Source: a virus
Lineage: Duplodnaviria; Heunggongvirae; Uroviricota; Caudoviricetes
IMG/VR virus record: IMGVR_UViG_2537561977_000014
Direction: 5' to 3' (one strand)
DNA: 41,015 nucleotides
The first letter of the stretch is position 1. Every line of letters begins with the position of its first letter. The notes under the pieces are model-generated. The model worked only from the letters and a program-made list of their open reading frames with translations. It did no database searches and was not told the origin of the DNA. A program made the translations under genes and the position numbers. This document shows positions 1 through 39,477 of this stretch, one piece after another.

Positions 1-408
1 CCGGGCAGTGATGTGATTGTCTGCGCTGAAATGGACGAACAGTGGGGCTACGTCGGTGCTAAATCACGTCAGCGCTGGCTGTTTTACGCGTATGACAGGA
101 TACGGAGGACGGTTGTGGCGCACGTCTTCGGTGAACGCACTCTGGCCACACTGGAGCGTCTTCTGAGCCTGCTGTCGGCCTTTGAGGTCGTGGTATGGAT
201 GACGGATGGCTGGCCGCTGTATGAATCACGCCTGAAGGGAAAGCTGCACGTTATCAGCAAGCGTTACACTCAGCGCATTGAGCGACATAATCTGAATCTG
301 AGACAACATCTGGCAAGGCTGGGACGGAAGTCACTGTCGTTCTCAAAATCGGTGGAGCTGCATGACAAGGTCATCGGGCATTATCTGAACATAAAACACT
401 ATCAGTAA
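1..408 (+). CDS. insB: IS1 transposase InsB segment (5' partial at window edge)
   Basis: ORF 13-408 translation identical to the 34685-35080 ORF; recognisable IS1 InsB sequence (..[52 protein letters not shown]..). Confidence 0.85.
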
Positions 409-423
409 GTTGGAGTCATTACC
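1..423 (+). mobile_element. IS1-family insertion sequence, partial copy (window starts inside the element); right terminal repeat ends at 423
   Basis: Bases 1-423 are identical to 34673-35096 of the complete IS1 copy; ends with the IS1-type terminus ...cactatcagtaagttggagtcattacc. Confidence 0.9.
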
Positions 424-737
424 CGAATTTTATAAGTATTTCTGGACACTTTTCTCCTTATAAGAATCGTTTTGTAACGTTCAATCCAGTCTGCCATAGT
501 AAATGAGTCGAACCCTTTAAGTTTTTCAATTAAGGCAGCAGGAGAGTAGTTTTTGTATATATAATGATTTGCTTCAATTGCCTGCGCTACTGCATCTCTT
601 CTTGAAATTTTACCTAGTGTAAATTCTTCTTTCGTCAGAGGGTTGCGCCAGTAATATGCTTTGTCTCTCCTTCGATATGTTAAGTTTCTAGGCAAATTGG
701 GATCGTATTTTTCCGCTGCATGTTTTAACTTCTCCAT
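424..737 (-). pseudogene. int: Lambda-type tyrosine integrase, N-terminal ~105 codons only; reading frame runs straight into the IS1 end at 423
   Basis: Translation ..PNLPRNLTYRRRDKAYYWRNPLTKEEFTLGKISRRDAVAQAIEANHYIY..WIERYKTILIRRK.. resembles the arm-binding N-terminus of lambda Int; catalytic domain absent from the window. Confidence 0.65.
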
Positions 738-968
738 TAACGGACTGTCTCTCCCTTGTCGCCCATTAGGCTGATGGTGTGTTATATCGGTATCAACCTT
801 ATTTGGGTTGATATAGAAAGCCTCCGGAACCACCCTGTAACTCCTCCCGTGTAGTTCAGGTGCAGGATAAATGTTTCCATTCCTTGCCCATCGTCTCAGC
901 GTTGATATTGATGGTGGGTTATCCGGATATCTGAGTTTTCCCCACGTTTTGAGTGTCACAAGATTCAT
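738..968 (-). CDS. xis: Excisionase (lambda Xis-like); in the same frame as the int fragment in the ORF track, exact boundaries uncertain
   Basis: MNLVTLKTWGKLRYPDNPPSISTLRRWARNGNIYPAPELHGRSYRVVPEAFYINP resembles lambda Xis (MYLTLQEWNARQRRPRSLETVRRWVRECRIFPPPVKDGREY..). Confidence 0.5.
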
Positions 969-1074
969 TGCCATACCTCTCACGATATGACCGCCAGTAA
1001 ATATACAGAATACTGGCGGGTGTGGTTGATTTTTAATAATCAGCTATGAAGTTCTAATCTGGATATAATGAAAT

Positions 1075-1287
1075 TCACGAGGACTGAAGTTTCTCGCAAT
1101 TAAAATTTATCAGTTTTACTTTCTGCTCTCTGGAAACGCCTGCTTCTTTTTCCCCTGAGAGCATTTTTTCGCATTCTGATTTCGTTAGTTTTGTCTTTGA
1201 GTATCTTGTCCAGCTGGTAGGAGATCCACCTTCCTTTTCAATAGTGGCTGTAATTTTATACATGAACACCTCCATTAATATTTTCAA
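1075..1287 (-). CDS. Hypothetical small phage protein (70 aa)
   Basis: ORF in operon orientation between ATPase gene and xis; no recognisable motif. Confidence 0.4.
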   Translation of the reverse strand: MKILMEVFMYKITATIEKEGGSPTSWTRYSKTKLTKSECEKMLSGEKEAGVSREQKVKLINFNCEKLQSS

Positions 1288-1313
1288 AAACCGTGTCCAA
1301 AATGCACTTGGTT

Positions 1314-2411
1314 TTACACCGGAATATTCTCATCGTATCCTGCTTGTTGCGTTTCGTTTTGTGTTTGTGGATCCGGGAATGCATATTCAACGCCTTCCAG
1401 TTCAATCCATAGTGCATTACGACCAGCTTTGATTGTCGGCCAGTCCATACCTTTGATTCTTTCCCATGAGCGGGAGGTGAATGTTTTTTCCAGCAAATCA
1501 GCTTTTGCGCGTTTGGCGTCGTTACTGGTGCCCCCATGGTGCTTGTTGAGCAACTCGATAATTTCATCAAGTGCGATTTCTTTTGCACGCTTTTCTTTTA
1601 GCCATGTCGGTGTACCGTCGTTGGCAAATAATTCACTGTTATCCCGTGAGGTATCGATGCCGAGGTGTTCACCTCCCAGGTTAAGAAACTCGATATGAGG
1701 AAGAAAGTTTTTAAATGTTGGGTTTGAAAATACCTGTCCATCAATACGGGTGGAGCGATCTTTTAGTATTCTGGCGGTGCGCCACACCTGACCGGTTTCT
1801 ATGTTCATTTGCTTCTCCATCTGGATCAGGATGGAGGGTTCATAACCGGTTTCTGTTTCTGCTTTCATTTTTATACCGGTTTTTGCCAACTGGCGTTTGC
1901 CATCATCACCTTCGAAAAAGTCATACTCATATCCTGCACGCCCGCACATAATAATGTGCGCCTGACTGTTAACAAATCGATCGGTAAAGCGTCGCCACTC
2001 CTGTTTGAGCCACGCCCAGTCTGAAAATTCCAGTCCTCGTTTACGGTTTCGGCGTCTGGCATACTCGTCGCATAATCCGGTCCAGAAGTGACTGATGGAG
2101 TCGATGATCATTACGGAACCGCTGCTTTCCGCTTCATTAATGGCTTCAAGCAGATCAACAAACGAGCGGGTTTTTGCCGTAAATAATTCGATATTTTCCG
2201 CATCAAAGCGGGGTTTAACCCAGTCAGAGCCTGTTTCTGTGTCCAGAAACATTACCGGGCGGTTACCAGCTTCAATTCCCCGTTGCCGCATAAGCATTAC
2301 CAGACCAATAGCCAGTTCGCTTGCTGTGTAGGTTTTGCCGTCGCCAGCAAACCCCATAATTCCTGCTTTTAGATAGGCCTGTGTGTTTATTGCTCGTTGA
2401 AAAAGCGCCAT
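1314..2411 (-). CDS. P-loop NTPase, RecA-like fold (AAA_24/Sak4-like), probably recombination-associated
   Basis: Walker A GFAGDGKT and Walker B-like VMIIDSIS in the N-terminal half; sits where lambdoid recombination genes lie (upstream of xis/int). Confidence 0.6.
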   Translation of the reverse strand: MALFQRAINTQAYLKAGIMGFAGDGKTYTASELAIGLVMLMRQRGIEAGNRPVMFLDTETGSDWVKPRFDAENIELFTAKTRSFVDLLEAINEAESSGSVMIIDSISHFWTGLCDEYARRRNRKRGLEFSDWAWLKQEWRRFTDRFVNSQAHIIMCGRAGYEYDFFEGDDGKRQLAKTGIKMKAETETGYEPSILIQMEKQMNIETGQVWRTARILKDRSTRIDGQVFSNPTFKNFLPHIEFLNLGGEHLGIDTSRDNSELFANDGTPTWLKEKRAKEIALDEIIELLNKHHGGTSNDAKRAKADLLEKTFTSRSWERIKGMDWPTIKAGRNALWIELEGVEYAFPDPQTQNETQQAGYDENIPV

Positions 2412-2416
2412 AGATT

Positions 2417-2716
2417 TTAGTCCTCCAAATCAATATCAACCTGGTGGTGGGCAATGGTTTCAGCCATGTACCGGATGTGTTCTGCCATGCGCTCCTGAAA
2501 CTCAACATCATCATCAAATGCGTGGCTGATTGCCTGTTTATTGGCACCGTGGCGTTGCAAATGGTCGATGCAGAGCGATTCAAACAGGTGCTGAGGCAGA
2601 CCTTTTTCCAGGTCGTCCGCCAGTTCCGTTTCTTTTTCTTCACGAACGATCTGCTGGTAGTGACGAGCCCATGCCATTTCTTCAATACGATCAAAAATCG
2701 GGTAAGCGCTCATCAC
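2417..2716 (-). CDS. Hypothetical early-region phage protein (99 aa, acidic)
   Basis: ORF tightly packed in the minus-strand operon; no recognisable motif. Confidence 0.5.
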
Positions 2717-2918
2717 TGGTCACTCCAAAATTTTCAAGCTTGTTGGCAATCATCATTGCGATGTCAGGGATTGCAGGCGCATAGGCTATGCACGCAGGAT
2801 TCGCACATAAACCGTAAACCGCCGCAATCAACACCTGTTTTTTCCAGTTGAGTTCATCTTCGCCAGTTTCATTATTGCTATCATTATGCTGATCGCTGCC
2901 AGCGTTCTCCGGTAACAA
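2691..2918 (-). CDS. Hypothetical small protein (75 aa) with a hydrophobic C-terminal half
   Basis: ORF overlapping the 3' end of the upstream large gene; hydrophobic stretch [29 protein letters not shown]. Confidence 0.35.
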
Positions 2919-4630
2919 ATCATCAGCTTTTTCCGTTTACTTCGGCTCTTCTTCCTGTGCTTCATCTGGTTTTTTTCGTCAAAAGTTTCCTGATAAGTTG
3001 CGTCTCCCATCACCGCGCCACAGTCAGGGCAGTTATCCTCGCCAGTCTGATTGCAGGGTGTTCCCTCCTCCGGTTCGCTGTTCTGGTGCTGTTTATCTTC
3101 AGTCTGTCGCACTTCATTTTCCGTTTTTTTGACTTCATTTGAGGAGATATGATGACCGGGAATCCATTTCGAATCATTCGGGTCGCTAATCCCTTCAACA
3201 AATTCTCCGCGAGAGGCAGCCAGTAATTTGTCTGCATCGACAGGATTTTTGGGCGGAATGTTTTTCTGGGCTTCATGGAGTTCTGTCCGCAGTTTCTGAT
3301 ATTTCGCATCAACAGCATTTACCTGTGACTGAGTATCCAGCGGCTGCGTGTCCTGATGATGTTCAGTTGCATCCGGTTCCACTGTTTCAGCCGTTGCCTG
3401 TTCATCTGCCATTGCGCAAGATGGTTGCGGTTTTTCTTCATCATCCTGTTTTCCTTCTTCTGTTACACGTTGCGGCATCGGGGCAGAGGAGCGACCGCAG
3501 GCAATATCCACGATTTCCGGATCAGGGTTGGCATGATCGGTTTCAGTCAGTACCTTGTTCAGATATTCAGTGACGTGCGCGGGGATGACCTCGATACCAA
3601 TCGGTGCTTCTTTCACTAACGCAACCACGATGGCGCGGGAATAATCCATCCCGCCAGGCATGGTGATGAATTTGTCGCGGAAAACAGAAAAGGGCGGTTT
3701 ATTTTCAGCGATAATTTCCTCGACACGTTTAGCGTGTGCCGGATGAAGGTTATAAATGTCCACGTCCATTGAACGAGCCAGTACGCCAGTGGCTACGTCG
3801 CGCGCCAGTGACGTCAGATCGTGAACGAAACCTTCGCCGCGATCGGTGAGGTTCCCGCCGCCAGCATTAGCACCGGAAGCCGTGCGAGTGATACGCGAAA
3901 CACGATTTCCTTTCATCCACTCTTTTGTCAGCAGACCGCGATCGGTGTAGTTGGCATCCAGATATGCTTCGAAAAAAGCAGTCATCAGTCCCAGATTTGA
4001 ATTGCCAGGATTAGGGAAAACTTTGTCAGTATCACGCACGAGTTTGTGGAGGTCGCGAATCTCCAGCGGGTCGAGCAGACTGGTTTTATGCGAAACAGCC
4101 AGAGCAGTAACAGCCGGTAGTTCTTCATCCCGAGCAATGTGTAATGCCTGGAGTTCGTCGCGTGAAACGTGCGTTACCGGTTTTTCGCTGCCGTGTTGCG
4201 CAAGCCAACGAATGGGCAGTTCCTGACCGGAAACTGGCAGGAGCATGTTCTCCTCAATTTCTGTCATGTCTTCGCCGTTGACGTTGGTATTGTCAGTGCT
4301 GGCTGGTTTGTCCTGAACAGAGGGAGAAGATGCGATAAATACCATTGTGATGCCATCTTCCCCGCCTTTTTCGTAACGGTTGCAGAATTCCGTATCAAAC
4401 ACGCCTTCTGGTGGGAGGTCATCAACAACGGGCAAATTGACGCGAACAGGTTTTTTAAAGTCATCTTCATCGTAGCCAGCATCGTCAATCGCAACAGCAC
4501 CACGGGAGATGGCAATGGATAATTTTTTCGCTTCAGCCCAGTAAAAACCGCCTTTAATACCGAGGCGTTTTCTTACTTTGTCATTTTTTGCTTCGTAATA
4601 CAGTGGGTAAACTTGTTTATCGGTGCTCAT
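2828..4630 (-). CDS. Large acidic early-left-operon protein (~600 aa), function unknown; occupies the recE position of Rac-like prophages
   Basis: Long uninterrupted ORF; start chosen at ATG 4630 (MSTDKQ..), preceded by GAGG ~10 nt upstream; Cys cluster CPDC near C-terminus; no nuclease motif recognised by eye. Confidence 0.6.
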
Positions 4631-4663
4631 TGTTTTTAACCTCAACTCATATTCAGATTGCAT

Positions 4664-4948
4664 AAAAGAAACGAACTGATGATGCGATATGAGAGAGTTC
4701 TTTCAGTCGTTGATAACTGATACCGTATTTCTTGTCAGCCTCTTCAATGCGAGCTGTGAGTAATGCAATTTCTTTAATGGCACATACACAACAATCAAAT
4801 GTTCCCAGAACGTAACCGTCATCAATAATTACCGTGACGTTTTCTTTTGGGAAATCTGAATGAAACTATGTAATGTATTCCCACATTTAAATTCGGCGAG
4901 AGAATCGTTAATAACATCAAGTTCAATTCCACATTCAATAATGCTCAT
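4664..4948 (-). pseudogene. Small early gene (~92 codons) split over two frames by an apparent frameshift
   Basis: ATG at 4948 with AAGGAA RBS gives MSIIECGIELDVINDSLAEFKCGNTLHSFI.. then stop; the -1 frame continues ..[52 protein letters not shown]..; switch falls in a TTTCCCAAAAGAAAA tract. Confidence 0.3.
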
Positions 4949-5021
4949 TGCTGTTTCCTTTTTAAGGTTGAGTGAATCCCTGCCATTGCTGGCATAAATT
5001 CAGTTTCGAATATTCAGTTAA

Positions 5022-5309
5022 TTAAAGTTCGTGTGCCATCTTGTCTTTTTCGGCACAAGCTGCACTGCAATATTTTCGTTTCTTTCTGGCAATCATGTTT
5101 CCATGCATATAAATAAGCTCGCCAGTAAAAGCTTTTTCAGGTAAAAACTGTTTATTGCAGAGATGGTAATCACATTGTATTAAATCCGGGTCACCTTTTT
5201 GCTGGAGAATTTTTCTGATTCTCCACAGCCATTTTTTAATCCCGGTATGACTGATGGTCTGCCTGAGGGCAGGTGTAAAACAATAATCAAGCATGGGGTT
5301 CATATCCAT
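5022..5309 (-). CDS. Cys-rich small protein (95 aa), putative zinc-finger
   Basis: Cys pairs CDYHLC and CSAAC; basic residues; ORF in operon orientation. Confidence 0.45.
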   Translation of the reverse strand: MDMNPMLDYCFTPALRQTISHTGIKKWLWRIRKILQQKGDPDLIQCDYHLCNKQFLPEKAFTGELIYMHGNMIARKKRKYCSAACAEKDKMAHEL

Positions 5310-5348
5310 AGCTCCATTTTTATTTTAAGGAAAGCAACTGCTCTACGG

Positions 5349-5872
5349 TCATGTTTTAATTGCGCCCCGGTTTACAAGAGTCCAGCCCTGTTTTTCCAGA
5401 TAAAACCGGAAAGTCTCCAGGGTACAGACCAGTGCGCCATCAGGAACGGTTTCGGTGAATTCGACATTGCCGAATTTGTCGAAGTGAACAACCAGAGTGC
5501 GACCATCACCCGGAATCATCTTGTCAGCAGGTGGGGTGTTATTCTGGCGCAGTTCGGCCTCCATGCGGTCGAACTCAGCAATGTAGGCTTCTTTGAATGC
5601 GGCGGCTTTTTGCCAGTGAAGCCCATCACCAGGAAAACGAAGCCGTTTTTGGTGATTTGGTACATTGGGCGTTTTTCGCCTTTGGTGTCGGTGTAGGTGA
5701 CCGACACAAAATTGTGTTCGTTAAAATTTGATGAGCAGTCTAAATTGCGAATTTTATCCAGCACACGTTCGTGGCGTTTGCCGAAGAACTCCGCAATAGC
5801 AACAGACGTAGTGACAGCGCGACCATTTTCGATGGTTACGTCAGGGTGAGAAAGGGCAGGGATAGTAGCCAT
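5349..5872 (-). pseudogene. rha: Phage regulatory protein Rha family, frameshifted
   Basis: N-terminal frame ..AIAEFFGKRHERVLDKIRNL..PMYQITKNGFVFLVMGFTGKK then nonsense; C-terminal homology (MEAELRQ..) resumes in another frame (ORF 5349-5564); frames are reconciled by one extra A in the A5 run (plus-strand TTTTT at 5587-5591). Confidence 0.65.
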
Positions 5873-6140
5873 TTTAGTGGCCTCCTTAACTGTTTTAGTC
5901 TGCGATTACCAGTTAGTAGCTGGTGATCGGGTGTCAACTAGAGCCAGTTAAGAAGCTCCGGGCATATTCCCCTTACGGGTATTGTATTACGCCTCTCCAC
6001 CCGATCTTTGTACGGATGTGCCGTATTTCAGGCATAAAAAGCCGCAAGGCTATCGGGTGCGGATGACCGCTTAACTGTTTCTAGTGCGATCATCTTGCAA
6101 CAATGCAGGTTGCTTTGTCAATATCCCGGATATCAGAAAG

Positions 6141-6172
6141 CAAAAACCCCTGAACTGGTGGGGACAGGGGCG
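6141..6172 (-). terminator. Rho-independent terminator downstream of the toxin gene
   Basis: Minus-strand hairpin CCCCTG-(12 nt loop)-CAGGGG followed by TTTTTG. Confidence 0.5.
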
Positions 6173-6190
6173 CTACTAAATGTGTAATTG

Positions 6191-6511
6191 CTAAACTCTG
6201 ATCAATCGTCTGAACAGTAACTGTTTAATATCCTGACGTTGGGAAAGAATCACGTGTGCAGTGATAATATCCTCCTCGACAGAGTACAGCACTCTGTAGC
6301 CTTCTGGTGTGTTGCACTCTCTGTATTTAGCCACGCCAAGCTTGAGCAACTCCGGGCATAACTGACATCCGGACGGGAATGCAGTAACTCTTGTTTCAAA
6401 TCGCTCAAGAATTTCTGCTATTACAGGGCGTGGGTCAATGTCGTTACTCCGGAGATGGTCGGCAATTTGCTCAAGGCTTGTTCTGGCGGTAAGTGTGTAT
6501 TCAACCTGCAT
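6191..6511 (-). CDS. Type II toxin, RelE/ParE superfamily
   Basis: ~106 aa with C-terminal ..EGYRVLYSVEEDIITAHVILSQRQD.. signature; immediately downstream of a Phd/YefM-like ORF. Confidence 0.7.
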   Translation of the reverse strand: MQVEYTLTARTSLEQIADHLRSNDIDPRPVIAEILERFETRVTAFPSGCQLCPELLKLGVAKYRECNTPEGYRVLYSVEEDIITAHVILSQRQDIKQLLFRRLIRV

Positions 6512-6532
6512 AGTTAACCTTAGTTGTTAAAG

Positions 6533-6751
6533 CTATCCAGCAACTGTGCTTTGAAAACACGCGACTTCAGACTTGTCGTTTTCTGAAATAGTGAGAAGTT
6601 TCAGTAACGCAATAGCGTTCTCGCGTTCCTGTTGCTGCTCATAGGATTCAATTACGTATGCAGGAACACCATTCTGCGTGACAAGAATGGGTTCCGCCAG
6701 GTCCAGTGAGGCTGCGTTTTTCTTGATGTAGCTGATAGTTTCTATTTTCAT
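6533..6751 (-). CDS. Type II antitoxin, Phd/YefM-like
   Basis: 72 aa; ..PILVTQNGVPAYVIESYEQQQE.. resembles Phd/YefM; 21 nt upstream of the toxin gene. Confidence 0.65.
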   Translation of the reverse strand: MKIETISYIKKNAASLDLAEPILVTQNGVPAYVIESYEQQQERENAIALLKLLTISENDKSEVACFQSTVAG

Positions 6752-7153
6752 ATGGGTGTTCCTTTTTTCATTGGGAGTTATAATTTAGTCTGAATTTAGT
6801 TTTCTCGCAAGTGGCGGAAGCCGCCAGTTTGGTTTGTTCAAAAAGTCACATCCCGACCCTGCGTTCCGGTTCTGCGGATATATCAGGGCATTCGGCGGCA
6901 CCCCGAATTGTGGTTTACGTGACAGCCCGGTTCATATTGTTAAAGAGCGGCGGATTTCAGGTGTGGAAATCCCCTGCACGAATAACGGTTAATTCGCGCA
7001 TAATTAATTAAATAAATTTTGTTGATGCGGTGCCTGGTGCCTCCAGGTGACGTTAACCAGTTAACAATTAACGCCGGAATAAGGGATTTTCCTTACTGTT
7101 TTAACTGTTCCGCGTGCGCTCAGCCGCATTCACCGCATCACAAAATTCACTTT

Positions 7154-7212
7154 AAAAAGGGCGGCAGAGCAAAACTGATGCCGCCAAAAGTTTCATCGCC
7201 AACAACTCAATC
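7154..7212 (-). ncRNA. dicF: DicF-like small RNA candidate (Qin-type cell-division inhibitor sRNA) with intrinsic terminator
   Basis: Minus-strand ..UUUGGCGGCAUCAGUUUUGCUCUGCCGCCCUUUUU: 7-bp GC stem plus U-run; resembles remembered E. coli DicF core; lies downstream of dicA and the ydfA-B-C-position ORFs as in Qin. Confidence 0.45.
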
Positions 7213-7515
7213 TGGAGATGTTGTGGCGGGTTGTCACTTAATCGTATGGTCAACCTGACAACCCGGTGGACATTTGCGAGGAACGGAGAAACCCCGCCAT
7301 ACTTACCGCCGCGCCATTTCGCGGATTGCCACAACCGGAAGCGCACGGTCGGCGAAAATTTAACGACAGGCTATCTATGACCAGCTACCTCGCCGTGCGC
7401 TTTCGTGTTGTGTGCCTGCTTTTAACCACGTCAGGCGAGGTGGTTCCTGTTATTCCCCAACAACAAGAAATTTGTATAATCTGAATACCCCAACAATAAG
7501 AAGAGTGAGCAAGTG

Positions 7516-7911
7516 ATGTTTGATCTATCATTAGCGATGTCAGCTCTCAAAGAGACTGCATCAATGTTAAAATTATTCAATGAAGCAAAAACTCAGGCTG
7601 AGGTTGATCGCGCTGTGTCTGAAATAAACTCTAAGTTGTCAAGCATTCAGCTTGAATATTTGTCTCTCATTGATGAGCTGACAATCTCTAAAAGCAATGA
7701 GGCTGCGCTCAAAGCAAAACTCACGGAGATAGAAAAGTTTAAGTTCCAAAGTGAAGACTGCGAACCTCGCCAATTGATTACTGGAACGATTGTGTATGCC
7801 AGACAGTGCAATACTAGCTCTGGCAAGATTACCATGTATTTTTGTCCAGAATGTTTTGCGAAGAGAGCAATATCTATATTGCAACCTTTCCCTTATCGAG
7901 GAAGGCGATAA
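7516..7911 (+). CDS. Hypothetical protein: N-terminal coiled coil plus C-terminal Cys4 zinc-ribbon-like motif; AT-rich moron on the opposite strand to flanking genes
   Basis: ORF of 131 codons; Cys pattern C-x14-C...CPEC; TATAAT at 7475-7480 flanked by direct repeats CCCCAACAA(C/T)AAG; visibly lower GC than neighbours. Confidence 0.55.
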   Translation: MFDLSLAMSALKETASMLKLFNEAKTQAEVDRAVSEINSKLSSIQLEYLSLIDELTISKSNEAALKAKLTEIEKFKFQSEDCEPRQLITGTIVYARQCNTSSGKITMYFCPECFAKRAISILQPFPYRGRR

Positions 7912-8101
7912 TATACGAAAACTCAATGTCCCTCCTGTAAAAATGAGTATCTCATGGACTACAATTTCAATAATGATTTTTGAGTCAAGGTATTCAGATT
8001 TTTAAAGAACATGCCGGATACTCACCCGTGTCCGGCGCACGCACTCCACCTCACCCGTGGAGAACTCCTTAATTACCAACCTTGGCTTCGTTGGTTAGCC
8101 A

Positions 8102-8320
8102 TTAACGCTGGTATGTAATCATTCTGGCAATGCTTAATGCCGCTGCTTTTTCCAGCCTGGTGATATCCTGCTCCTGAGCGGACAGATTTTCGGCCTCCTT
8201 AGCCCGGGCTTCATTGGCCCACTTCAGGTCCTGCGCAGCCTGAATTTTCTGGTGCATCCACTCATAAAGTTCATCATCGGTATAGTCTGGCGCGATGATG
8301 ACGGGGTCACGTTTCTGCAT
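8102..8320 (-). CDS. Small phage protein (72 aa) in the YdfC position of a Qin-like dicA operon
   Basis: ORF; position between the YdfB-position ORF and the DicF-like RNA. Confidence 0.5.
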   Translation of the reverse strand: MQKRDPVIIAPDYTDDELYEWMHQKIQAAQDLKWANEARAKEAENLSAQEQDITRLEKAAALSIARMITYQR

Positions 8321-8349
8321 ACCGATTCCTCGCAGTGCTGTTTCGCTTA

Positions 8350-8478
8350 TCAGCCGTTAGATTTTGCCGAACTGGAAAGCGCCTGTTTAAACTCACTGAA
8401 GCTGAGAGCTTCTTCGCCTTCGGCAAGGCCTTCGAAGTATTCTTCGTAAGCCTTTTTCATGATTGTGTCGAAATCCAT
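8350..8478 (-). CDS. Small protein (42 aa), YdfB-position ORF
   Basis: ATG at 8478 to stop at 8350 gives MDFDTIMKKAYEEYFEGLAEGEEALSFSEFKQALSSSAKSNG; size and position match Qin ydfB; below the ORF-track cutoff. Confidence 0.4.
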   Translation of the reverse strand: MDFDTIMKKAYEEYFEGLAEGEEALSFSEFKQALSSSAKSNG

Positions 8479-8479
8479 A

Positions 8480-8689
8480 TTACTCACCTGAGTTTCTTTC
8501 CAGCCAGCGACGCGCGCCAGATTCGGTTTTAAACGTTTTGCTTTTGGTATACGTCATCGCGGTGAACGTGCCGTCCTGGTTGGGGAACACGCCGTACACC
8601 AGAGATTCGTTGTTGCCAAGATCGATAGTATTCATGTTGACCCCATTTCCCCTTAACGCCGGGGTAGCGGAACTGTTTGCTGAGAACAC
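8480..8689 (-). CDS. Small phage protein (69 aa), YdfA-position ORF
   Basis: ORF downstream of dicA on the same strand. Confidence 0.5.
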   Translation of the reverse strand: MFSANSSATPALRGNGVNMNTIDLGNNESLVYGVFPNQDGTFTAMTYTKSKTFKTESGARRWLERNSGE

Positions 8690-8716
8690 CGTGCGGTGTC
8701 TTGATGAATGAAATTT

Positions 8717-8765
8717 AGAATAACCTAAGGTGTGCGGTCAAGATTTTTATGTAGAAAACCTAAGT
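8717..8765. promoter_or_regulatory. Operator-like direct repeats (TAGAAnAACCTAAG x2) between dicA and the downstream operon
   Basis: AACCTAAG at 8723-8730 and 8758-8765; same CTAAGG/CCTTAG half-site as the dicA-dicC intergenic palindrome. Confidence 0.4.
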
Positions 8766-8836
8766 TTTTTGATGTAAAAAACACAAGTGTTTGAAAGTTT
8801 GTGCTTTTTATTACAGGGTGTGGAGAAAAAAGGGGA

Positions 8837-9244
8837 TTATTTGTTTGCGCTTCTTTTGCGAGCTTTGAGTAGTTCTTCAAAAAGTTTGTTGAAATTTTCA
8901 ACTCGAGCACGCATCTCTGACAACAGGGCCTTTTGCTCTGACTCAGGCAGTGCGTCGAACAGTTGAAGTAACTCTTTTTGATCTTCTGTCAGAATGGCTG
9001 GCTGATTATCCGGGATCGGTTCGCCTGGTTGTTTATCTTCATCCCCAAAAAGAAGCCAAGTCGGTGAGCACTGAAGCGCTTGGCTCAGTGCGAATAATCT
9101 TTTCCCCGCCGGCTGTGTTTCATCTCTTTCCCATTGAGAAATTGTTACGTGAGCCACTTTGACCAGCTTACCTAATGCGGCCTGAGACAGTTTTAATTTT
9201 TTACGCCTATGTAAGAGGCGAGCACCGAAGGTTTCGTTTTTCAT
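8837..9244 (-). CDS. dicA: Prophage repressor, DicA-like (HTH_XRE)
   Basis: 135 aa; ..QAALGKLVKVAHVTISQWERDETQPAGKRLFALSQALQCSPTWLLFGDEDKQP..MRARVENFNKLFEELLKARKR closely resembles E. coli DicA; divergent from a DicC-like gene. Confidence 0.85.
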   Translation of the reverse strand: MKNETFGARLLHRRKKLKLSQAALGKLVKVAHVTISQWERDETQPAGKRLFALSQALQCSPTWLLFGDEDKQPGEPIPDNQPAILTEDQKELLQLFDALPESEQKALLSEMRARVENFNKLFEELLKARKRSANK

Positions 9245-9264
9245 ATTAGGGAATTCTAATTTTT

Positions 9265-9311
9265 CTTGACTTAGGTTTCTCTACGATCTAGTTTCCTTAG
9301 GAAAATCTAAG
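9265..9311 (+). promoter_or_regulatory. Divergent promoter/operator region between dicA and dicC
   Basis: TTGACT at 9265-9270; palindrome CCTTAGGAAAATCTAAGG at 9294-9311 overlapping the RBS of dicC. Confidence 0.4.
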
Positions 9312-9320
9312 GAGCTCGAT

Positions 9321-9548
9321 ATGTTGAAAATTGATGCTATAGCGTTTTTTGGCAGCAAAACAAAGCTTGCCAATGCCGCAGGAGTTAGGCTGGCAAGCAT
9401 TGCTGCATGGGGGGAACTGGTTCCTGAAGGTCGCGCGATGCGCCTGCAAGAGGCATCTGGCGGGGAACTTCAGTACGACCCCAAAGTTTATGACGAATAT
9501 CGTAAGGCAAAACGACCTGGGAAGGTGATTCATGAAAATCAGGCATGA
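9321..9548 (+). CDS. dicC: Cro-like regulator, DicC-like
   Basis: 75 aa; MLKIDAIAFFGSKTKLANAAGVRLASIAAWGELVPEGRAMRLQEASGGELQYDPKVYDEYRK resembles E. coli DicC. Confidence 0.8.
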   Translation: MLKIDAIAFFGSKTKLANAAGVRLASIAAWGELVPEGRAMRLQEASGGELQYDPKVYDEYRKAKRPGKVIHENQA

Positions 9549-9954
9549 GCACATCGAATCAGTGCTGTTAGCCCTGGCAGCCGAAAAAGGGCAGGCGTGG
9601 GTCGCTAACGCAATTACTGAAGAATATCTGCGGCAGGGGGGCGGCGAATTGTCTCTGGTACCAGGCAAGGACTGGAACAATCAGCAGAATATCTATCACC
9701 GTTGGTTGAAAGGTGAAACGAAAGCGCAAAGGGAAAAAATTCAGAAACTGATCCCTGCGGTTCTGGCAATTCTTCCGCGTGAGCTGCGTCACCGACTCTG
9801 TATCTTCGATACCCTGGAACGCCGTGCATTACTGGCGGCGCAGGAAGCGTTGAGTACGGCAATTGATGCGCATGATGATGCTGTCCAGGCCGTTTACCGG
9901 AAAGCACATTTCAGCGGTGGTGGGTCGCCCGGCGATTCTGTCGTAGTGCATTGA
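9532..9954 (+). CDS. Early regulatory protein (140 aa), YdaT-like position
   Basis: ORF overlapping the dicC stop; size and position as in Rac ydaT. Confidence 0.5.
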   Translation: MKIRHEHIESVLLALAAEKGQAWVANAITEEYLRQGGGELSLVPGKDWNNQQNIYHRWLKGETKAQREKIQKLIPAVLAILPRELRHRLCIFDTLERRALLAAQEALSTAIDAHDDAVQAVYRKAHFSGGGSPGDSVVVH

Positions 9955-9998
9955 TTGAAATTAATCGTGCCGGATTGTTTTGTTCGGTATCAGTTAAA

Positions 9999-10417
9999 TG
10001 TAACGCTGCGAGCGTTACAAGGTGAAAACAAATGGCTTCAAACTGGATAAAGCTCGAGGTTATTACGCCGGATAAGCCGGAAATATTCAGGCTTGCTGAG
10101 ATTCTGAATATTGATCCAGATGCCGCATTAGGGAAGGTTATTCGCTTCTGGGCATGGGCGGATCAACAAATGATAGACGGTAATGCAGATTGTAACGCTC
10201 GCGGCGTTACAAAAAGTGCAATAGATCGCATCACTTTTATGTCTGGTTTTGCTGATGCGTTAATTCAGGTTGGATGGCTGGTCGAAAATGACGGTGGGCT
10301 TTCTCTACCTAACTTTGAACGTCATAACGGAAAAAGCTCTAAAAAACGGGCGGTTACAAACGAGCGAGTAACAAAAATACGCGAACTGAAACGAAAAGGT
10401 AACGCTGCCAGCGTTAC
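9999..10417. repeat. Three copies of a 21-bp palindrome (T/G)GTAACGCT-N3-5-AGCGTTACA at 9999-10019, 10191-10211 and 10397-10417
   Basis: Read directly; first copy just upstream of the replication gene, other two inside its coding sequence. Confidence 0.6.
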
Positions 10418-10814
10418 ACAAACGGATCAAAAAGCGTTACCAGAGGAAGAGGAAGATCTAAATACTGATCTCCCCCTAAATCCCCCTCGCCAAAAACGAG
10501 CGTCTAAAAAATTCGAGCCGGAGGCTATTGAGCTGCCCGATTGGTTGCCGGAAACACTCTGGCATGAGTGGGTCCGGTTCAGACAGGCATTGCGAAAACC
10601 GATTCGAACGGAGCAGGGCGCTAACGGGGCGATACGGGAACTGGAAAAATTCCGTCAGCAGGGTTTTACACCTGAGCAGGTGATTCGACACAGCATCGCC
10701 AATGAATACCAGGGCCTGTTCGCGCCGAAAGGTGTTCGGCCTGAGACGTTGCTCCGACAGGTTAACACCGTCTCGTTGCCGGACAGTGCGATCCCGCCAG
10801 GCTTCAGGGGGTAA
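10032..10814 (+). CDS. Phage replication initiation protein (O-like/YdaU-like)
   Basis: 260 aa ORF immediately upstream of a DnaC-like gene; contains internal palindromic repeats. Confidence 0.65.
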   Translation: MASNWIKLEVITPDKPEIFRLAEILNIDPDAALGKVIRFWAWADQQMIDGNADCNARGVTKSAIDRITFMSGFADALIQVGWLVENDGGLSLPNFERHNGKSSKKRAVTNERVTKIRELKRKGNAASVTQTDQKALPEEEEDLNTDLPLNPPRQKRASKKFEPEAIELPDWLPETLWHEWVRFRQALRKPIRTEQGANGAIRELEKFRQQGFTPEQVIRHSIANEYQGLFAPKGVRPETLLRQVNTVSLPDSAIPPGFRG

Positions 10815-10820
10815 CGGACC

Positions 10821-11567
10821 ATGAAAAATATTGCGACAGGCGGCGTTCTGGAACGCATCCGCCGACTGACCCCGCCACATGTAACCGCCCCATTCAGAAC
10901 GGTAGCGGAGTGGCGCGAGTGGCAACTTGCTGAAGGCCAGAAACGTAGCGAGGAGATCAACCGCCTGAATCGCCAGTTGCGGGTGGAAAAAATTCTGAAT
11001 CGCTCAGGCATCCAGCCGTTGCACCGTAAATGCTCGTTTGCGAATTACCAGGTGCAGAACGACGGCCAGCGATACGCGTTAAGCCAGGCGAAATCCATCG
11101 CCGATGAACTGATGACCGGGTGTACAAATTTTGCGTTCAGCGGAAAACCTGGTACCGGGAAGAATCACTTAGCGGCAGCTATCGGGAATCGCCTGCTGAA
11201 AGACGGTCAGACAGTGATTGTGGTTACCGTGGCTGATGTTATGAGCGCCCTGCACGCCAGCTATGACGACGGGCAGTCAGGCGAAAAATTTTTGCGGGAG
11301 CTGTGCGAAGTGGATCTGCTGGTTCTTGATGAAATTGGCATTCAGCGCGAGACGAAAAACGAGCAGGTGGTGCTGCACCAGATTGTTGATCGCCGGACAG
11401 CGTCGATGCGCAGCGTGGGGATGCTGACAAACCTGAACTATGAGGTGATGAAAACATTGCTCGGCGAGCGGGTGATGGATCGCATGGTCATGAACGGCGG
11501 GCGCTGGGTGAATTTTAACTGGGAGAGCTGGCGTCCGAATGTTAGCCATTCGAGGGTTGTTAAGTAG
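10821..11567 (+). CDS. Replicative helicase loader, DnaC/IstB-like ATPase
   Basis: Walker A GKPGTGKNHL and Walker B LLVLDEIG; typical lambdoid P/DnaC position. Confidence 0.85.
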   Translation: MKNIATGGVLERIRRLTPPHVTAPFRTVAEWREWQLAEGQKRSEEINRLNRQLRVEKILNRSGIQPLHRKCSFANYQVQNDGQRYALSQAKSIADELMTGCTNFAFSGKPGTGKNHLAAAIGNRLLKDGQTVIVVTVADVMSALHASYDDGQSGEKFLRELCEVDLLVLDEIGIQRETKNEQVVLHQIVDRRTASMRSVGMLTNLNYEVMKTLLGERVMDRMVMNGGRWVNFNWESWRPNVSHSRVVK

Positions 11568-11581
11568 TTTCAGGAGGATTT

Positions 11582-12004
11582 ATGGCGAAACCTTTTACTC
11601 CCGAACAGCGGGAAGAACTGAAGACGCGAATTGTGGAACTCGTGCATCAGGACGGTCGGGTCACGATTCGGCAGTTGTCAGATGAAACAGGTATCAGTCG
11701 TGCGTCTGTCGGTCGCTTATGCATGGAACTGGTCGCAAGTGGTGATGTATATAATTCTGGCTACGGCTTATTCCCGTCTGAACAGGCTCGCAAGGACTGG
11801 CAAAGCGCCCGCAAAAAACTCTCGAGAGTAAAGGTGAGGAAACCGGTTGTTGTTGATCCGGACCTTATCTGGTCATTACCTGACGGAGAAATACGCCGCT
11901 ACGACAGGCGCCTGAATATAATCTGTCGCGAGTGCCGGAAGAGCGAAGCTATGCAGCGTGTACTGGCTTTCTATCAGGGTAATTTTCAGGAGGCGATACT
12001 GTGA
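11582..12004 (+). CDS. Hypothetical nin-region protein, probable winged-HTH
   Basis: 140 aa; ..RVTIRQLSDETGISRASVGRLCMELV.. HTH-like segment. Confidence 0.5.
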   Translation: MAKPFTPEQREELKTRIVELVHQDGRVTIRQLSDETGISRASVGRLCMELVASGDVYNSGYGLFPSEQARKDWQSARKKLSRVKVRKPVVVDPDLIWSLPDGEIRRYDRRLNIICRECRKSEAMQRVLAFYQGNFQEAIL

Positions 12005-12061
12005 ATGAAATTAGCTATCAGGCTTCAATTACCGCTGGCATTCGCATCAAAGGAGAGGAGC

Positions 12062-12418
12062 ATGGAAATAAAACCAGAAGATGAGTTAAGCAATATCGTT
12101 TTATTTCCGATAAAAGAGGATGACCCTCGTAATCAGGTTAATTTTCTTTATGAGCCATCGGAAAGACCATATTGCCATCACGCCTCTGTACGGGTTGACG
12201 AAAAAGAGCGTCAGGTCCGCTGTAAAATCTGCGGTGCGGTTGTGGAGCCGTTTGACTGGATGCTCTCTGTGGCAAAAAGAGAAACCAGACTGGCAGATGA
12301 TGTAAGGCTATTGCGCCAGGAGGAACAGGAAAGGCGGAGAAATATAGAAAAGCTGATACAGATTGAGCGTAACGCGAAAGCGCGGATACGCAGGGCGACA
12401 AAATCCAGAACTGAATAA
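12062..12418 (+). CDS. Hypothetical protein with zinc-ribbon-like motif (HH..C-x2-C) and coiled-coil tail
   Basis: ATG 12062 preceded by AAAGGAGAGGAG; PYCHHASVRVDEKERQVRCKICGAVV. Confidence 0.5.
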   Translation: MEIKPEDELSNIVLFPIKEDDPRNQVNFLYEPSERPYCHHASVRVDEKERQVRCKICGAVVEPFDWMLSVAKRETRLADDVRLLRQEEQERRRNIEKLIQIERNAKARIRRATKSRTE

Positions 12419-12565
12419 TTAAATTTAGCACTGTTAAAAATTTAATCCTTAACCGGAGGGATTTCTGCACCCTCAAATCATCAGGAGACCGCCCGAAAGG
12501 GCGGGGAGCAGTCACACATCTGTTTCCGATAGCCCCGTTCTAATGCTACACTCTTTGATATTTTT

Positions 12566-13252
12566 ATGACCCCAATAAACATATTTATGACAGTTGCTGA
12601 TTTCAAACGGCCCAAATTGGAGCTCCCAAACGGGGCAAACAAACTACTACTGCACTCTTGCTGTGCTCCATGTTCCGGTGAGGTGATGGAGGCGCTTCAG
12701 GCCTCGGGAATCGACTACACCATCTTTTTCTACAACCCGAACATTCATCCTCAGAAAGAGTATTTAATTCGTAAGGATGAGAATATTCGCTTTGCTGAAC
12801 AACACGGCGTGCCGTTTATTGATGCTGATTACGACACAGACAACTGGTTTGAACGAGCCAAAGGAATGGAATGGGAGCCCGAACGAGGGATCCGTTGCAC
12901 CATGTGTTTTGACATGCGTTTTGAGCGGACAGCGCTGTACGCCGCTGAAAATGGTTTCAGTGTGATCAGCAGTTCACTGGGCATTTCACGCTGGAAAAAT
13001 ATGCAGCAGGTTAACGACTGTGGGCGGCGAGCCGTCGCGCATTATCCGGGCATGGTGTACTGGGATTATAACTGGCGCAAGCAGGGCGGCTCGTCCCGTA
13101 TGATTGAAATCAGCAAGCGCGAAAAATTCTATCAGCAGGAATATTGTGGCTGTGTGTATTCTCTGCGCGATACCAATCTACACCGCAAATCTCAGGGACG
13201 CCCTCTTATCAAAATTGGTCAACTCCACTACGGTAAAGAAGAGAAGGAGTGA
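12566..13252 (+). CDS. Epoxyqueuosine reductase QueH-like (DUF208)
   Basis: Conserved [11 protein letters not shown] motif plus CTMCFDMR and EYCGCV Cys clusters typical of QueH/DUF208. Confidence 0.7.
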
Positions 13253-13479
13253 TTTTATGGGGCACCTTTCTGATTGATTTCATATTGGCGAGGTAAGTAG
13301 AATGACTGCGGGTGCTTGAGGCTATCTGCTTCAGGCATGAACACCAAAAGGCAGATAGAGAAAAGCCCCAGTTAACATTACGCGTCCGGCAAGACGCTTA
13401 ACATTAATCTGAGGCCAATTTCATGCTTTGCACATGTAGGTTAGCCTCTTACATGCCGAAAGGCAAGGAGAAGCAGGCT

Positions 13480-13635
13480 ATGAAGCAGCAAAAGGCGATG
13501 TTAATCGCCCTGATCGTCATCTGTTTAACCGTCATAGTGACGGCACTGGTAACGAGGAAAGACCTCTGTGAGGTACGAATCCGAACCGGCCAGACGGAGG
13601 TCGCTGTCTTCGTAGACTACGAATCCAGGAAGTAA
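13480..13635 (+). CDS. hok: Hok/Gef-family type I toxin (HokD/RelF-like)
   Basis: MKQQKAMLIALIVICLTVIVTALVTRKDLCEVRIRTGQTEVAVF.. matches the Hok family; GC-rich fold-back hairpins and terminator in 13640-13760. Confidence 0.8.
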   Translation: MKQQKAMLIALIVICLTVIVTALVTRKDLCEVRIRTGQTEVAVFVDYESRK

Positions 13636-25322: not shown

Positions 25323-25549
25323 CAGCCATATGGCCCCCTGGCGGGGCCATTAAGGATGACCCGATGGCAAAAATAATGCAGTAATACACGTACATACCCC
25401 GTTTGTGCTCACGCTTCCCGACGGTTCGCGGCGCGAGTTTGTTAAAGGCCGTCATGCAGTGGAGGAAGACGTTGCCACGCACTGGTTCACTCGTGCGCAC
25501 GCGGAAGTATCCGTTGGCAAAGCCACAGACGCGCGTAACGAGGTAAAAA

Positions 25550-36884: not shown

Positions 36885-37447
36885 GTGGAAATTAAAAAAA
36901 TCATTAATCCCCGTTATACCGAAAGTGGCGCAGTAGACTGTGACGTTTTTTTGACGACAGGGACCAGGCAGTCCCCTACACAGCCACCGCTGATGATGTC
37001 GCTCCGACGGGTCAGCAAATCTGGCAGGAACTGCAAAGCGGCAAATGGGGTGAGATAGCCCCATTCACTGTGACACCAGAAATGCTGGAAGCGGCCAGAG
37101 AGGCCAGACGTCAGGAAATTGAAGCATGGCGCGCAGAACAGGAGGCGAAGCCGTTCACGTTTGAATGGAACGGTCGTATCTGGAATGCTGGTCCCGACTC
37201 ACTGGGCCGCCTGTCCCCGGTAGTCATGCTGGCAAAATCTGTCACAGCACAAACACATATGGCGTGGAGCGATGCCGATAATCAGCAGGTGAAACTGTCG
37301 ATGCCGGAACTGGAAGAACTGGCGGCAGCAATGGTGCAGGCGCAGGTCGATCGCAACGATGAGATTTATCGCCGTCAGCGGGAGATGAAAGAGGAGCTGA
37401 GCAGTCTGGATGATTTGGCTTCAATTCGGGCGTTTGACGTTAAGTAA
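36885..37447 (+). pseudogene. tfa: Tail fiber assembly protein (Tfa) with a frameshift in a T7 homopolymer (36946-36952)
   Basis: GTG 36885 after GAGGAA gives VEIKKIINPRYTESGAVDCDVF then shifts; family sequence continues in frame of ORF 37070-37447 (..YTATADDVAPTGQQIWQELQSGKWGEIAPFTVTPEMLEA..); one extra T would join them. Confidence 0.65.
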
Positions 37448-37626: not shown

Positions 37627-39342
37627 TTATGAATGGTGCAGTTGTGAGCCGTTTTCAGGCAATCGCAGGGCCAGTACCTCGTCAGTCAGCTGACGGTAAA
37701 TCTGCTGTTCAGTCTCACGCATCACCTGTGCACCGGCTTCCCTCTCCGCATCCGCATCACCGCTCAGACCTGATGCTTTCAGCCGGTCAGCCACCCTCTG
37801 AGGGTACTCATTCTCCAGCATCTCATATTTCTGCTCTTCTGCCAGCGCCCAGCGGTCAGCTTCCGTACGCTTCAGTACAGCATGCCATGGTCCCCAGAGG
37901 GAGAACCAGTCCGTAAATTCATTCTCTTCACGGCTTCTGACCATGGCTTCGGCAGTGCGGAGGTCATTTGCTGTCACTCCCGACACGCCATAGAAACGCA
38001 TTTCCTTCACGGCAGTGGAGAGCTGAAGTTTCTCTGCGAGCATGGTCTGGAAGGCCAGGTAGACTTCTATCTCATCCACAAAATGGAGAGTTCTGACTTT
38101 ATCCCGGGCAATGTCCTCCAGAATTTCGAGGCGGAACATTTCCCTGCCCAGGGAGAGCAGAGCGCCGGTATCATTATCGAAAAGGCCTTCTGATGCCTGA
38201 TGGACCAGGAGGGTTTTCCGGAGATTGTTCCATGTGAGCGCGACACGGTCCTCACAGCTCTCAGTGGCATCAGCAGCAACAGTGAAAGACTGCTGTCGAA
38301 GCTCCGCAGAGGCACTGAGTTTTTCCAGCCATGCAGCGACCTGTTCACGGAATCCGGAGGTATTGCGTGCAGAGACGGTATCGGAAAGGCGGTCAAGGAA
38401 CGCGGAAAAGGTGTTGGCATGCTCTTCATGTTCAAAAGCATGCCATATCTGTGATACATCAGATTGTTTGTTTTCCGGGAACCATGCTGTCACGGCATCA
38501 GCCAGGGGGCGATGGAGTGTATTCTGTTGTCCGTCACTCATGGAGAAGTAAATCCGTGGGCCGTGGTAGTCCGGTTGGGCGGTTTGTTGCGACAGAGACT
38601 CCCTGATCCGTGAGGACAGAGGATTGTCTTCGAGGATGATAGTGCAGGTCGGATCAAGGCTAAGTATATTTTCCGGAATGTGTGTGATGCGATTCTCGCG
38701 GCACCGGAAAAATATCTCGGTTTCCTCTGAGTGATGATTTCTTACAGGTACGGCTGGTAGGCTTTCCAGAAGATTAGTACTTACATCGAGCGCTTCCAGT
38801 GATTCAGGTAACTCAGGGAGAAATGTCAGCTGGTTATTTCTTACTGAGAGCACTTCCAGCGATGTAGGTAATTCAGGAAGCATGGTTAGCTGATTGTTAT
38901 CTGCATTAATATATTCCAGCAATGCAGGCAATTCAGGAAGCATGGTTAGTTGGTTGTTATCTACATCAAGATGTTTCAGAGATGCGGGTAATTCAGGAAG
39001 TGTTGACAGGTGATTGTCACAGGCGTCAAGGTATTCCAGCGATGCTGGCAATTCTGGTAATGATATTAGGGCATTCTGAGTAATTTCCAGAACAGTGATT
39101 TGAGGTGGTAAGTTGTCAGGTAGCGAGGACAGATTTAAACGATTCAGTTGAAGCTCACTGAACTGATTGATGAGACATTCTTTAAGTAGGGAGACCGCTT
39201 CATTCCGATTTTCACCGGGGAGCGCTTGTTTTTCCCATTTATCCCATGCTGAAAAGTAATCAGCATATGTACCGGAAATAGTGTTATAAAAAGAATTTTG
39301 GGACAATGAAAAGTTATTATTTATCGGTAACATGATGGACAT
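37627..39342 (-). CDS. ipaH: IpaH-family type III secretion effector, novel E3 ubiquitin ligase (N-terminal LRR domain, C-terminal NEL domain)
   Basis: 571 aa; N-terminus MSIMLPINNNFSLSQNSFYNTISGTYADYFSAWDKWEKQALPGENRNEAVSLLKECLINQFSELQLNRLNLSSLPDNLPPQITVLEIT; tandem 20-residue LxxLPxLPxxLxxLxxxxNx repeats; NEL signature ..AADATESCEDRVALTWNNL.. with catalytic Cys. Confidence 0.9.
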   Translation of the reverse strand: MSIMLPINNNFSLSQNSFYNTISGTYADYFSAWDKWEKQALPGENRNEAVSLLKECLINQFSELQLNRLNLSSLPDNLPPQITVLEITQNALISLPELPASLEYLDACDNHLSTLPELPASLKHLDVDNNQLTMLPELPALLEYINADNNQLTMLPELPTSLEVLSVRNNQLTFLPELPESLEALDVSTNLLESLPAVPVRNHHSEETEIFFRCRENRITHIPENILSLDPTCTIILEDNPLSSRIRESLSQQTAQPDYHGPRIYFSMSDGQQNTLHRPLADAVTAWFPENKQSDVSQIWHAFEHEEHANTFSAFLDRLSDTVSARNTSGFREQVAAWLEKLSASAELRQQSFTVAADATESCEDRVALTWNNLRKTLLVHQASEGLFDNDTGALLSLGREMFRLEILEDIARDKVRTLHFVDEIEVYLAFQTMLAEKLQLSTAVKEMRFYGVSGVTANDLRTAEAMVRSREENEFTDWFSLWGPWHAVLKRTEADRWALAEEQKYEMLENEYPQRVADRLKASGLSGDADAEREAGAQVMRETEQQIYRQLTDEVLALRLPENGSQLHHS

Positions 39343-39461: not shown

Positions 39462-39477
39462 CTGTAAAAAACGATAC
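39462..39477 (-). promoter_or_regulatory. MxiE-box-like motif with downstream TATAAT (39437-39442) in the ipaH promoter region
   Basis: Minus-strand GTATCGTTTTTTACAG versus remembered consensus GTATCGTTTTTTTANAG; ~120 nt upstream of the ipaH ATG; TATAAT ~20 nt downstream of the box. Confidence 0.55.

Follow-up and report, generated by a model that had tools for sequence, protein, structure and literature searches.

A PfiT/PfiA-like toxin-antitoxin gene pair in an IS1-truncated Rac-like prophage of Escherichia coli LT-68

Among described systems, the closest relative of the gene pair analyzed here is PfiT/PfiA (PA0729/Rorf0727) of the Pseudomonas aeruginosa filamentous prophage Pf4, for which a structure is available (PDB 9w3a; PMC7264888, PMC13048266). 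Overexpression of PfiT kills cells (PMC7264888) and is accompanied by filamentation and lysis (PMC13048266), and both toxicity and neutralization by direct binding of the antitoxin have been demonstrated for this homologue (PMC7264888). In the crystal structure, two helices of the antitoxin, alpha2 (A46-G56) and alpha3 (S67 to F79), jointly clamp the toxin, and the toxin carries an extra C-terminal extension that is peculiar to PfiT (PMC13048266). The operator of the Pf4 system, as defined by footprinting, is AATTC GGTCT GAATT (PMC7264888).

Here we describe a related pair in a 41,015-nt stretch of viral DNA (IMG/VR record IMGVR_UViG_2537561977_000014; hereafter, the window). The pair is a PfiT/PfiA-like module that combines a ParE-branch toxin with a Phd/YefM-fold antitoxin, and its relatives already appear in RefSeq as a RelE/ParE toxin with a Phd/YefM antitoxin, annotated as type II. 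New here are the link to the structurally solved PfiT/PfiA, the prediction of an operator and promoter, the boundaries of a moron-like cassette, and the recognition that the unusual tail of the antitoxin is most likely an assembly error.

Gene pair, predicted folds, and transcription signals

The initial annotation of the window had placed an antitoxin-like ORF ahead of a toxin ORF with 21 nt between them, and both ORFs are found there, to the nucleotide, on the minus strand (Table 1; gap at 6512..6532). In relatives with a 77-aa antitoxin, the gap is 8 nt. [quoted passage not shown] A Shine-Dalgarno sequence, AGGA, lies 9 nt upstream of the antitoxin ATG, and AAGG is found upstream of the toxin ATG. 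The toxin ORF is intact and 100% identical to an allele present on 158 contigs.

The window corresponds to part of the draft genome of E. coli LT-68, since contig ADUP01000017.1 (GCA_000188815.2) is 100% identical to window positions 533..12751. The 72-aa antitoxin has been recorded once, as the LT-68 protein EFZ60650.1. In the record of the LT-68 contig (L004, about 6241..6561), the intact 106-aa toxin ORF is absent from the called genes, and the frameshifted antitoxin is listed merely as a hypothetical protein.

Table 1. Positions of the features discussed in the text (window coordinates)
Feature	Position	Strand	Details
IS1 transposase ORF	13..408	+	
Truncated integrase ORF	402..983	-	excisionase (xis) domain fused to integrase arm-binding domain
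RalA antitoxin RNA	1079..1257	+	203.9 bits
Private indel sites (BLAST gap coordinates)	4632, 4844, 4958, 5353, 5606, 6035, 6549, 6564, 7893, 7909		
Mobile cassette common to otherwise divergent prophages (e.g., strain A34)	6133..7164	-	blastn segment boundaries
Intrinsic-terminator-like hairpin GCCCCUG..CAGGGGU with U5 tract	6139..6171	-	20 nt past toxin stop
Toxin ORF	6191..6511	-	106 aa, ATG start; modelled as ParE branch of RelE/ParE superfamily, PfiT-like
Frameshifted stretch of antitoxin	6520..6565	-	alignments, four-way comparison, conservation, AF2 helices
Antitoxin ORF as read in window	6533..6751	-	72 aa, ATG start
Predicted promoter and operator	6782..6810	-	read directly from minus strand
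ORF at SieB position	7513..7911	+	132 aa in window
YdaT_toxin-domain ORF (YdaT homologue)	9532..9954	+	
sok	13310..13485	+	117 bits; beside hokD in relatives
ipaH	37627..39342	-	
Shigella sRNA CssrB	39470..39652	+	151.6 bits

By profile search, which the initial annotation had proposed as a check of its ParE/RelE-fold assignment, the toxin matches Pfam ParE_toxin (PF05016) with 32.9 bits against a cut-off of 23, over profile positions 1-88 of 89. When all PDB sequences were searched with phmmer, both chains of the PfiA-PfiT complex (9w3a), and no others, emerged as significant relatives of the pair (E=8e-8 for the toxin against PfiT; E=8e-22 for the antitoxin against PfiA). An AF2 model of the toxin (32 homologues, pLDDT 86.7) has strands at residues 2-5, 63-67, 72-79, and 82-90 and helices at residues 7-22 and 27-44, giving two N-terminal helices on an antiparallel beta-sheet, a fold that Foldseek matches with probability 1.0 to many family members. 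PfiT ranks at the top (TM 0.86, rmsd 2.0 Å), followed by the ParE toxins (TM 0.65-0.72 for O157 ParE2, V. cholerae ParE2, M. tuberculosis ParE1, and P. aeruginosa ParE), with RelE, YoeB, YafQ, and HigB lower than these (TM 0.45-0.58). An extra C-terminal helix is predicted at residues 95-105, where the pLDDT is 51-61, and the Foldseek alignment extends over 108 columns of PfiT. As modelled, the toxin is of the ParE branch and specifically PfiT-like, which sharpens the earlier assignment to ParE/RelE.

Could the toxin instead be a ribosome-dependent mRNA endonuclease of the RelE type rather than a gyrase poison of the ParE type? PF05016 spans both branches, and NCBIfam TIGR02385 (RelE_StbE) is matched weakly, below its threshold (21.5 bits against a cut-off of 27.9). 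Antitoxins of the Phd/YefM fold often partner YoeB or RelE toxins, and the basic residues K57, K62, R64, R73, and R92 of the toxin are conserved. However, the structural ranking described above, the modelled PfiT-like C-terminal helix in place of a RelE catalytic tail, and the filamentation and lysis caused by PfiT overexpression (PMC13048266) all argue for a ParE-type toxin, and we consider a RelE-type activity to be quite unlikely. The ParE-branch assignment is the one that we carry forward.

The Phd/YefM assignment of the antitoxin also holds and can be narrowed to PfiA-like. Against Pfam PhdYeFM_antitox (PF02604; cut-off 29.8), the antitoxin reaches 29.7 bits in its 72-aa form and 30.1 bits in its intact form of 77 aa, and against NCBIfam phd_fam it falls below threshold (16.4 bits; cut-off 20.8). 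With the AF2 model of the 77-aa form, Foldseek ranks PfiA at the top (53% identity), ahead of RelB, YefM, and Phd. The model predicts an N-terminal beta-alpha-beta-beta fold for dimerization and DNA binding, followed by C-terminal toxin-binding helices. The family is widespread in Enterobacterales at lengths of 75-77 aa, and T5 is invariant within it.

A promoter with a -35 element TTGCGA (6810..6805), a 17-nt spacer, and a -10 element TAAATT (6787..6782) is predicted upstream of the antitoxin. Overlapping the spacer and the -10 is a PfiAT-like box, AATTC-AGACT-AAATT (AATTCAGACTAAATT at 6796..6782), 31-45 nt upstream of the antitoxin ATG, which is a candidate for an operator of the AATTC-N5-GAATT type within the pair's own promoter. 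On both strands of the window, AATTCN5RAATT has a single match, at this promoter, with 0.37 expected. The promoter/operator region also contains a direct repeat, ACTAAATT, in two copies that are 11 nt apart. Homologues on plasmids of Y. pestis (pMT1), Cedecea, and Y. ruckeri share only 66-68% DNA identity with the pair and are otherwise divergent in their upstream DNA, within which the -35 (TTGCRA), the box (AAATnTAGACTAwATT), and the -10 stand out as conserved islands. Since these three elements are kept as islands in divergent DNA, their conservation supports a model in which the pair would be autoregulated through promoter occlusion, presumably by binding to the box.

The terminator that had been proposed to follow the toxin is present as a hairpin with a 7-bp G+C-rich stem (about 6171..6146) followed by UUUUU. 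In an alignment with relatives, the stem is invariant and the loop variable; the folding z-score of the hairpin is not significant by itself. A generic promoter/terminator scan called neither signal of the pair, as the loop of the terminator exceeds 8 nt and the promoter has 8 of 12 hexamer matches, where the rule is 9 of 12. Both were read by eye from the minus strand and are backed by conservation. Another hairpin, at 6812..6826, was considered as a terminator of leftward read-through and rejected because it has no U-tract on the minus strand; if it is a terminator at all, it resembles one on the plus (antisense) strand.

Origin of the altered antitoxin C terminus

The suspicion in the initial annotation that the antitoxin C terminus is atypical, and perhaps altered, proved well founded. 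Residues 1-62 are identical to the common 77-aa form, and residues 63-72 (VACFQSTVAG) are out of frame; compared with its relatives, the gene has lost one base at each of two places, leaving G for GG at 6565 and AAA for AAAA at 6550..6552. In relatives, the antitoxin is 77 aa long and ends in ..SEGRVFSKAQLLDSFNN, corresponding to an ancestral TAA stop at 6520..6522, and the new reading in the window ends in ..SEVACFQSTVAG followed by a stop codon. The conserved tail whose place is taken by VACFQSTVAG, GRVFSKAQLLDSFNN, is the second toxin-binding helix. The segment lost contains a nearly invariant linker residue, G63, and the motif x-[VIL]-[FYL]-S-[KR]-x-Q-L-L, which is conserved across Enterobacterales, and it coincides with the predicted helix alpha3 (residues 68-75 in the AF2 model of the 77-aa form). 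An intact C-terminal toxin-binding segment (residues 63-77), present in all relatives, is missing from the window as written.

Is this change a property of the strain or of its sequence record? The 72-aa form is found on a single contig, that of LT-68 itself, and the 77-aa form on 567 contigs. Compared with four close relatives (VL40, CP065611, strain 53638, and CP026877), window positions 3966..8674 contain 10 private single-base indels and one private substitution. All four relatives disagree with the window at nine of the indel sites and three of the four at the remaining one, 5353; in the BLAST gap coordinates of Table 1, the antitoxin deletions are 6549 and 6564. Deletions account for nine of these 10 indels and mostly fall in runs of at least three identical bases, and over 7.7 kb of alignment with CP065611 the window shows 12 gap openings and only 4 mismatches. 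The indels break rha (5606, 5353), a small ORF (4844, 4958), a 155-aa ORF (7893/7909), and the antitoxin gene, leaving the toxin untouched. In the 155-aa ORF the two indels are 16 nt apart, and in the antitoxin gene 14 nt. Since a 10:1 excess of indels over substitutions is an unnatural mutation spectrum and a signature of homopolymer-length miscalls where coverage is poor, we hold with good confidence that, to judge by these alignments, the antitoxin deletions entered the LT-68 draft through errors of sequencing or assembly. The LT-68 gene itself most likely encodes the canonical 77-aa antitoxin, and the altered tail very probably arose in the draft assembly and is not biology. The assembly batch of 2010-11 to which LT-68 belongs was presumably sequenced by 454.

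An error of the homopolymer type acting across the whole genome is only partly supported. In 18 kb elsewhere in the window, in the late region, there are just two private indels against 14 substitutions, so that the error explanation needs a locally poor stretch; the low-quality part of the draft is most likely at about 4.6-8.0 kb. Frameshifted genes within it, namely the antitoxin tail, rha, and the ORF at the sieB position, should not be read as biology. Private homopolymer deletions relative to both FDAARGOS_944 and VL40 were noted at 25368 (A6 to A5), at the start of an STY1053-family gene, and at 36945 (T8 to T7), inside a DUF4376 gene (gene assignments from the FDAARGOS_944 annotation). 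A further point speaks against an artefact: a change of GG to G is no classic long-homopolymer miscall.

If both deletions were real, LT-68 would make a 72-aa antitoxin that keeps its DNA-binding domain and alpha2 and lacks alpha3, half of the clamp. Neutralization might then be weakened, the stoichiometry of the complex changed, or the module in early decay. The window sequence does read this way, alpha2 alone forms the larger hydrophobic interface in PfiA, making partial binding conceivable (PMC13048266), and the prophage is already degraded by IS1 in the pseudogene-rich background of EIEC. In the antitoxin gene of Logan contig SRR16093183_1457 (L008, 305..526), the same T4CA4 tract carries an independent frameshift, with T5 in place of T4. 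[quoted passage not shown] However, the 72-aa form is private to one draft contig, and it would require two independent 1-nt losses, separated by 14 nt, where substitutions are all but absent and the indel excess described above is found. An intact toxin paired with a crippled antitoxin should be counter-selected, and the motif that is lost is conserved across Enterobacterales. On balance, real deletions in LT-68 seem unlikely to us.

Far less probable still, and hardly credible on present evidence, is that C-terminal frameshifts are both real and recurrent, with the G/T4CA4 tract at the start of alpha3 serving as a slippage-prone switch. The LT-68 and SRR16093183 alleles do converge on a +1 frame ending in ..STVAG. 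Were such a switch to exist, an alpha3-less antitoxin could bind DNA and dock on the toxin through alpha2, shifting the toxin:antitoxin stoichiometry and the amount of free toxin; it would be a genetic analogue of the phosphorylation-driven switch from PfiA6T4 to A2T2 and would tune prophage maintenance. Programmed frameshifting at T4CA4 was also considered and rejected, as the tract lacks a canonical slippery heptamer, the +1 product would be just 6-10 residues, and the in-frame form is present on 567 contigs. We return below to the reading in which the deletions are errors of the draft and the antitoxin has 77 residues.

Prophage context and mobility of the cassette

The carrier is an IS1-truncated, Rac-like prophage of the enteroinvasive-type E. 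coli LT-68. A transposase ORF of IS1 abuts the truncated integrase ORF, in which the arm-binding domain is all that is left of the integrase, and the prophage is incapable of excision by its own integrase. That the prophage is defective had been implied in the initial annotation, which had also placed the pair in the early-left region. The latter is seen in the gene order repressor (HTH_3), DUF1391, SieB-position ORF, antitoxin, toxin, Rha, KilR/YdaE, RecE, which is the same in eight genomes and is that of the leftward early operon of Rac-like prophages. In these eight genomes, the SieB position is occupied by SieB or by an unrelated 155-aa ORF on the opposite strand, and the TA cassette sits between the gene at this position and rha. 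The prophage also carries ipaH, the type I antitoxin RNAs RalA and sok, CssrB, and a YdaT homologue (Table 1).

The cassette consists of the terminator, toxin, antitoxin, promoter, and about 400 nt of upstream non-coding DNA. A near-identical prophage, that of FDAARGOS_944, lacks it, and in the complete E. coli genome collection the cassette is found in only seven records; for these reasons, it behaves as a moron. A blastn search of deposited phage genomes, with a sensitivity of 65-70%, gave no match to the cassette.

Several observations concern the DNA around the pair. The ORF at the SieB position, 155 aa in relatives, is reduced to 132 aa in the window through its paired indels. It belongs to no Pfam family, has several cysteines in its C-terminal region with weak, sub-threshold matches to zinc-ribbon Pfam families, and could serve in superinfection exclusion or defence. 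Positions 5917..6006 on the minus strand, in the interval from the TA terminator to the start codon of rha, match Rfam sRNA-Xcc1 (67.4 bits; gathering threshold 53). The region that includes this match, 5902..6092, carries no annotation in thousands of E. coli genomes, in which it is conserved at about 86%, and may represent an sRNA or a leader connected with rha. Two sub-threshold Rfam matches on the minus strand, STnc100 at 6988..7157 (38.9 bits against 47), inside the cassette, and DicF at 7159..7195 (27.9 bits against 48), fall in the non-coding DNA, roughly 400 nt long, that precedes the TA promoter. At the corresponding place in strain A34, a 'tRNA-OTHER' is annotated (L003 9081..9158).

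Proposed function and comparison with known systems

Comparison of E. coli alleles indicates purifying selection on both genes, with dN/dS values of 0.04-0.13 (toxin) and 0-0.22 (antitoxin). This bears on whether the pair might be a non-functional remnant that merely resembles a TA module, as might be supposed for genes in a defective prophage with broken genes around them and a toxin ORF that is missing from the list of called genes in LT-68. Against such decay stand the selection on both genes, their presence at full length in hundreds of contigs, the conservation of promoter, operator, Shine-Dalgarno sequence, and terminator, and the mobility of the module across prophages and plasmids. We regard a remnant as highly improbable. 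The explanation that we favor overall, and consider likely, is a PfiT/PfiA-like TA moron whose tail deletions are sequencing or assembly errors.

How might such a module work? From what was read from the data (the ORFs, their family and fold, the operator-like box, conservation, selection, context, and indel profile), we infer toxicity, molecular target, neutralization, autoregulation, and biological role as follows. The locus would be an autonomous type II TA cassette that a defective Rac-like prophage carries as a moron within its leftward early operon. By analogy with PfiAT, the antitoxin would dimerize through its N-terminal beta-alpha DNA-binding domain and clamp the toxin with alpha2 and alpha3, and the complex would repress its own promoter by occupying the AATTC-N5-AAATT box over the -10. 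When the labile antitoxin is not replenished, free ParE-like toxin would poison growth. Its target is likely to be DNA gyrase, by extrapolation from other ParE toxins, with filamentation and death as for PfiT. Loss of the element would thereby be penalized, or prophage or phage development modulated. Plausible roles, again by analogy, are to retain the defective prophage region with its ipaH gene, to influence how the prophage develops, as in Pf4, or to act by abortive infection. Neither protein matched the PADLOC defence models, a result that lends no support to a catalogued defence system.

The locus is of a known kind and has little importance beyond annotation. It does place a TA pair of E. 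coli/Shigella-group prophages beside the recently solved PfiT/PfiA, and a testable model follows for the operator, for the clamp formed by alpha2 and alpha3, and for the additional helix at the C terminus of the toxin.

Like PfiT/PfiA, the pair is prophage borne and organized as an antitoxin-first bicistron, in which intact alleles have 8-9 nt between the genes. The N-terminal domain of the antitoxin is about 65% identical to that of PfiA, including T5, S7, and K10, and position 11 is basic in both (lysine here and arginine in PfiA). Both antitoxins have the alpha2/alpha3 layout for toxin binding, the toxin model has the ParE fold with the extra C-terminal helix of PfiT, and a putative operator of the AATTC-N5-RAATT type lies within the promoter. 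Unlike PfiT, the toxin (28% identical; 106 versus 115 aa) lacks the disulphide cysteine C109, and the tails of the two antitoxins diverge past residue 67. The box lies over the -10 here and over the -35 in PfiAT, and the carrier is a lambdoid, Rac-like dsDNA prophage, whereas Pf4 is an inovirus. Assembly in a 6:4 ratio (an A6T4 decamer), phosphorylation of T5, and control of phage production are features of PfiAT.

The ParE systems compared were E. coli O157 PaaA2-ParE2 (5czf), V. cholerae ParD2-ParE2 (7r5a), M. tuberculosis ParDE1 (8c24), and P. aeruginosa ParDE (6xrw). With these toxins the pair shares the fold, the type II logic, and gyrase as the presumed target. However, identity is only 16-24%, these ParE toxins are without the extra C-terminal helix, and their antitoxins are ParD (RHH) or PaaA2 and not of the Phd/YefM fold. 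The antitoxin in turn resembles those of YefM-YoeB and Phd-Doc in the modelled N-terminal fold and probable mode of DNA binding, with a match to PF02604 that is borderline, but identity is 16-23% and the partners differ, YoeB being an RNase of the RelE branch and Doc a Fic kinase.

Finally, the pair belongs to the same subfamily as the RelE/ParE-Phd/YefM pair of Yersinia pestis pMT1/pFra and other Enterobacterales plasmids, with which it shares the promoter and box. On the plasmids, unlike in the window, the two genes overlap or abut by 0-1 nt. Since the plasmid pairs adjoin a recombinase or partition gene, their position suggests that they serve plasmid stabilization. The subfamily thus moves between Rac-like prophages and plasmids of Enterobacterales such as Y. 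pestis pMT1.
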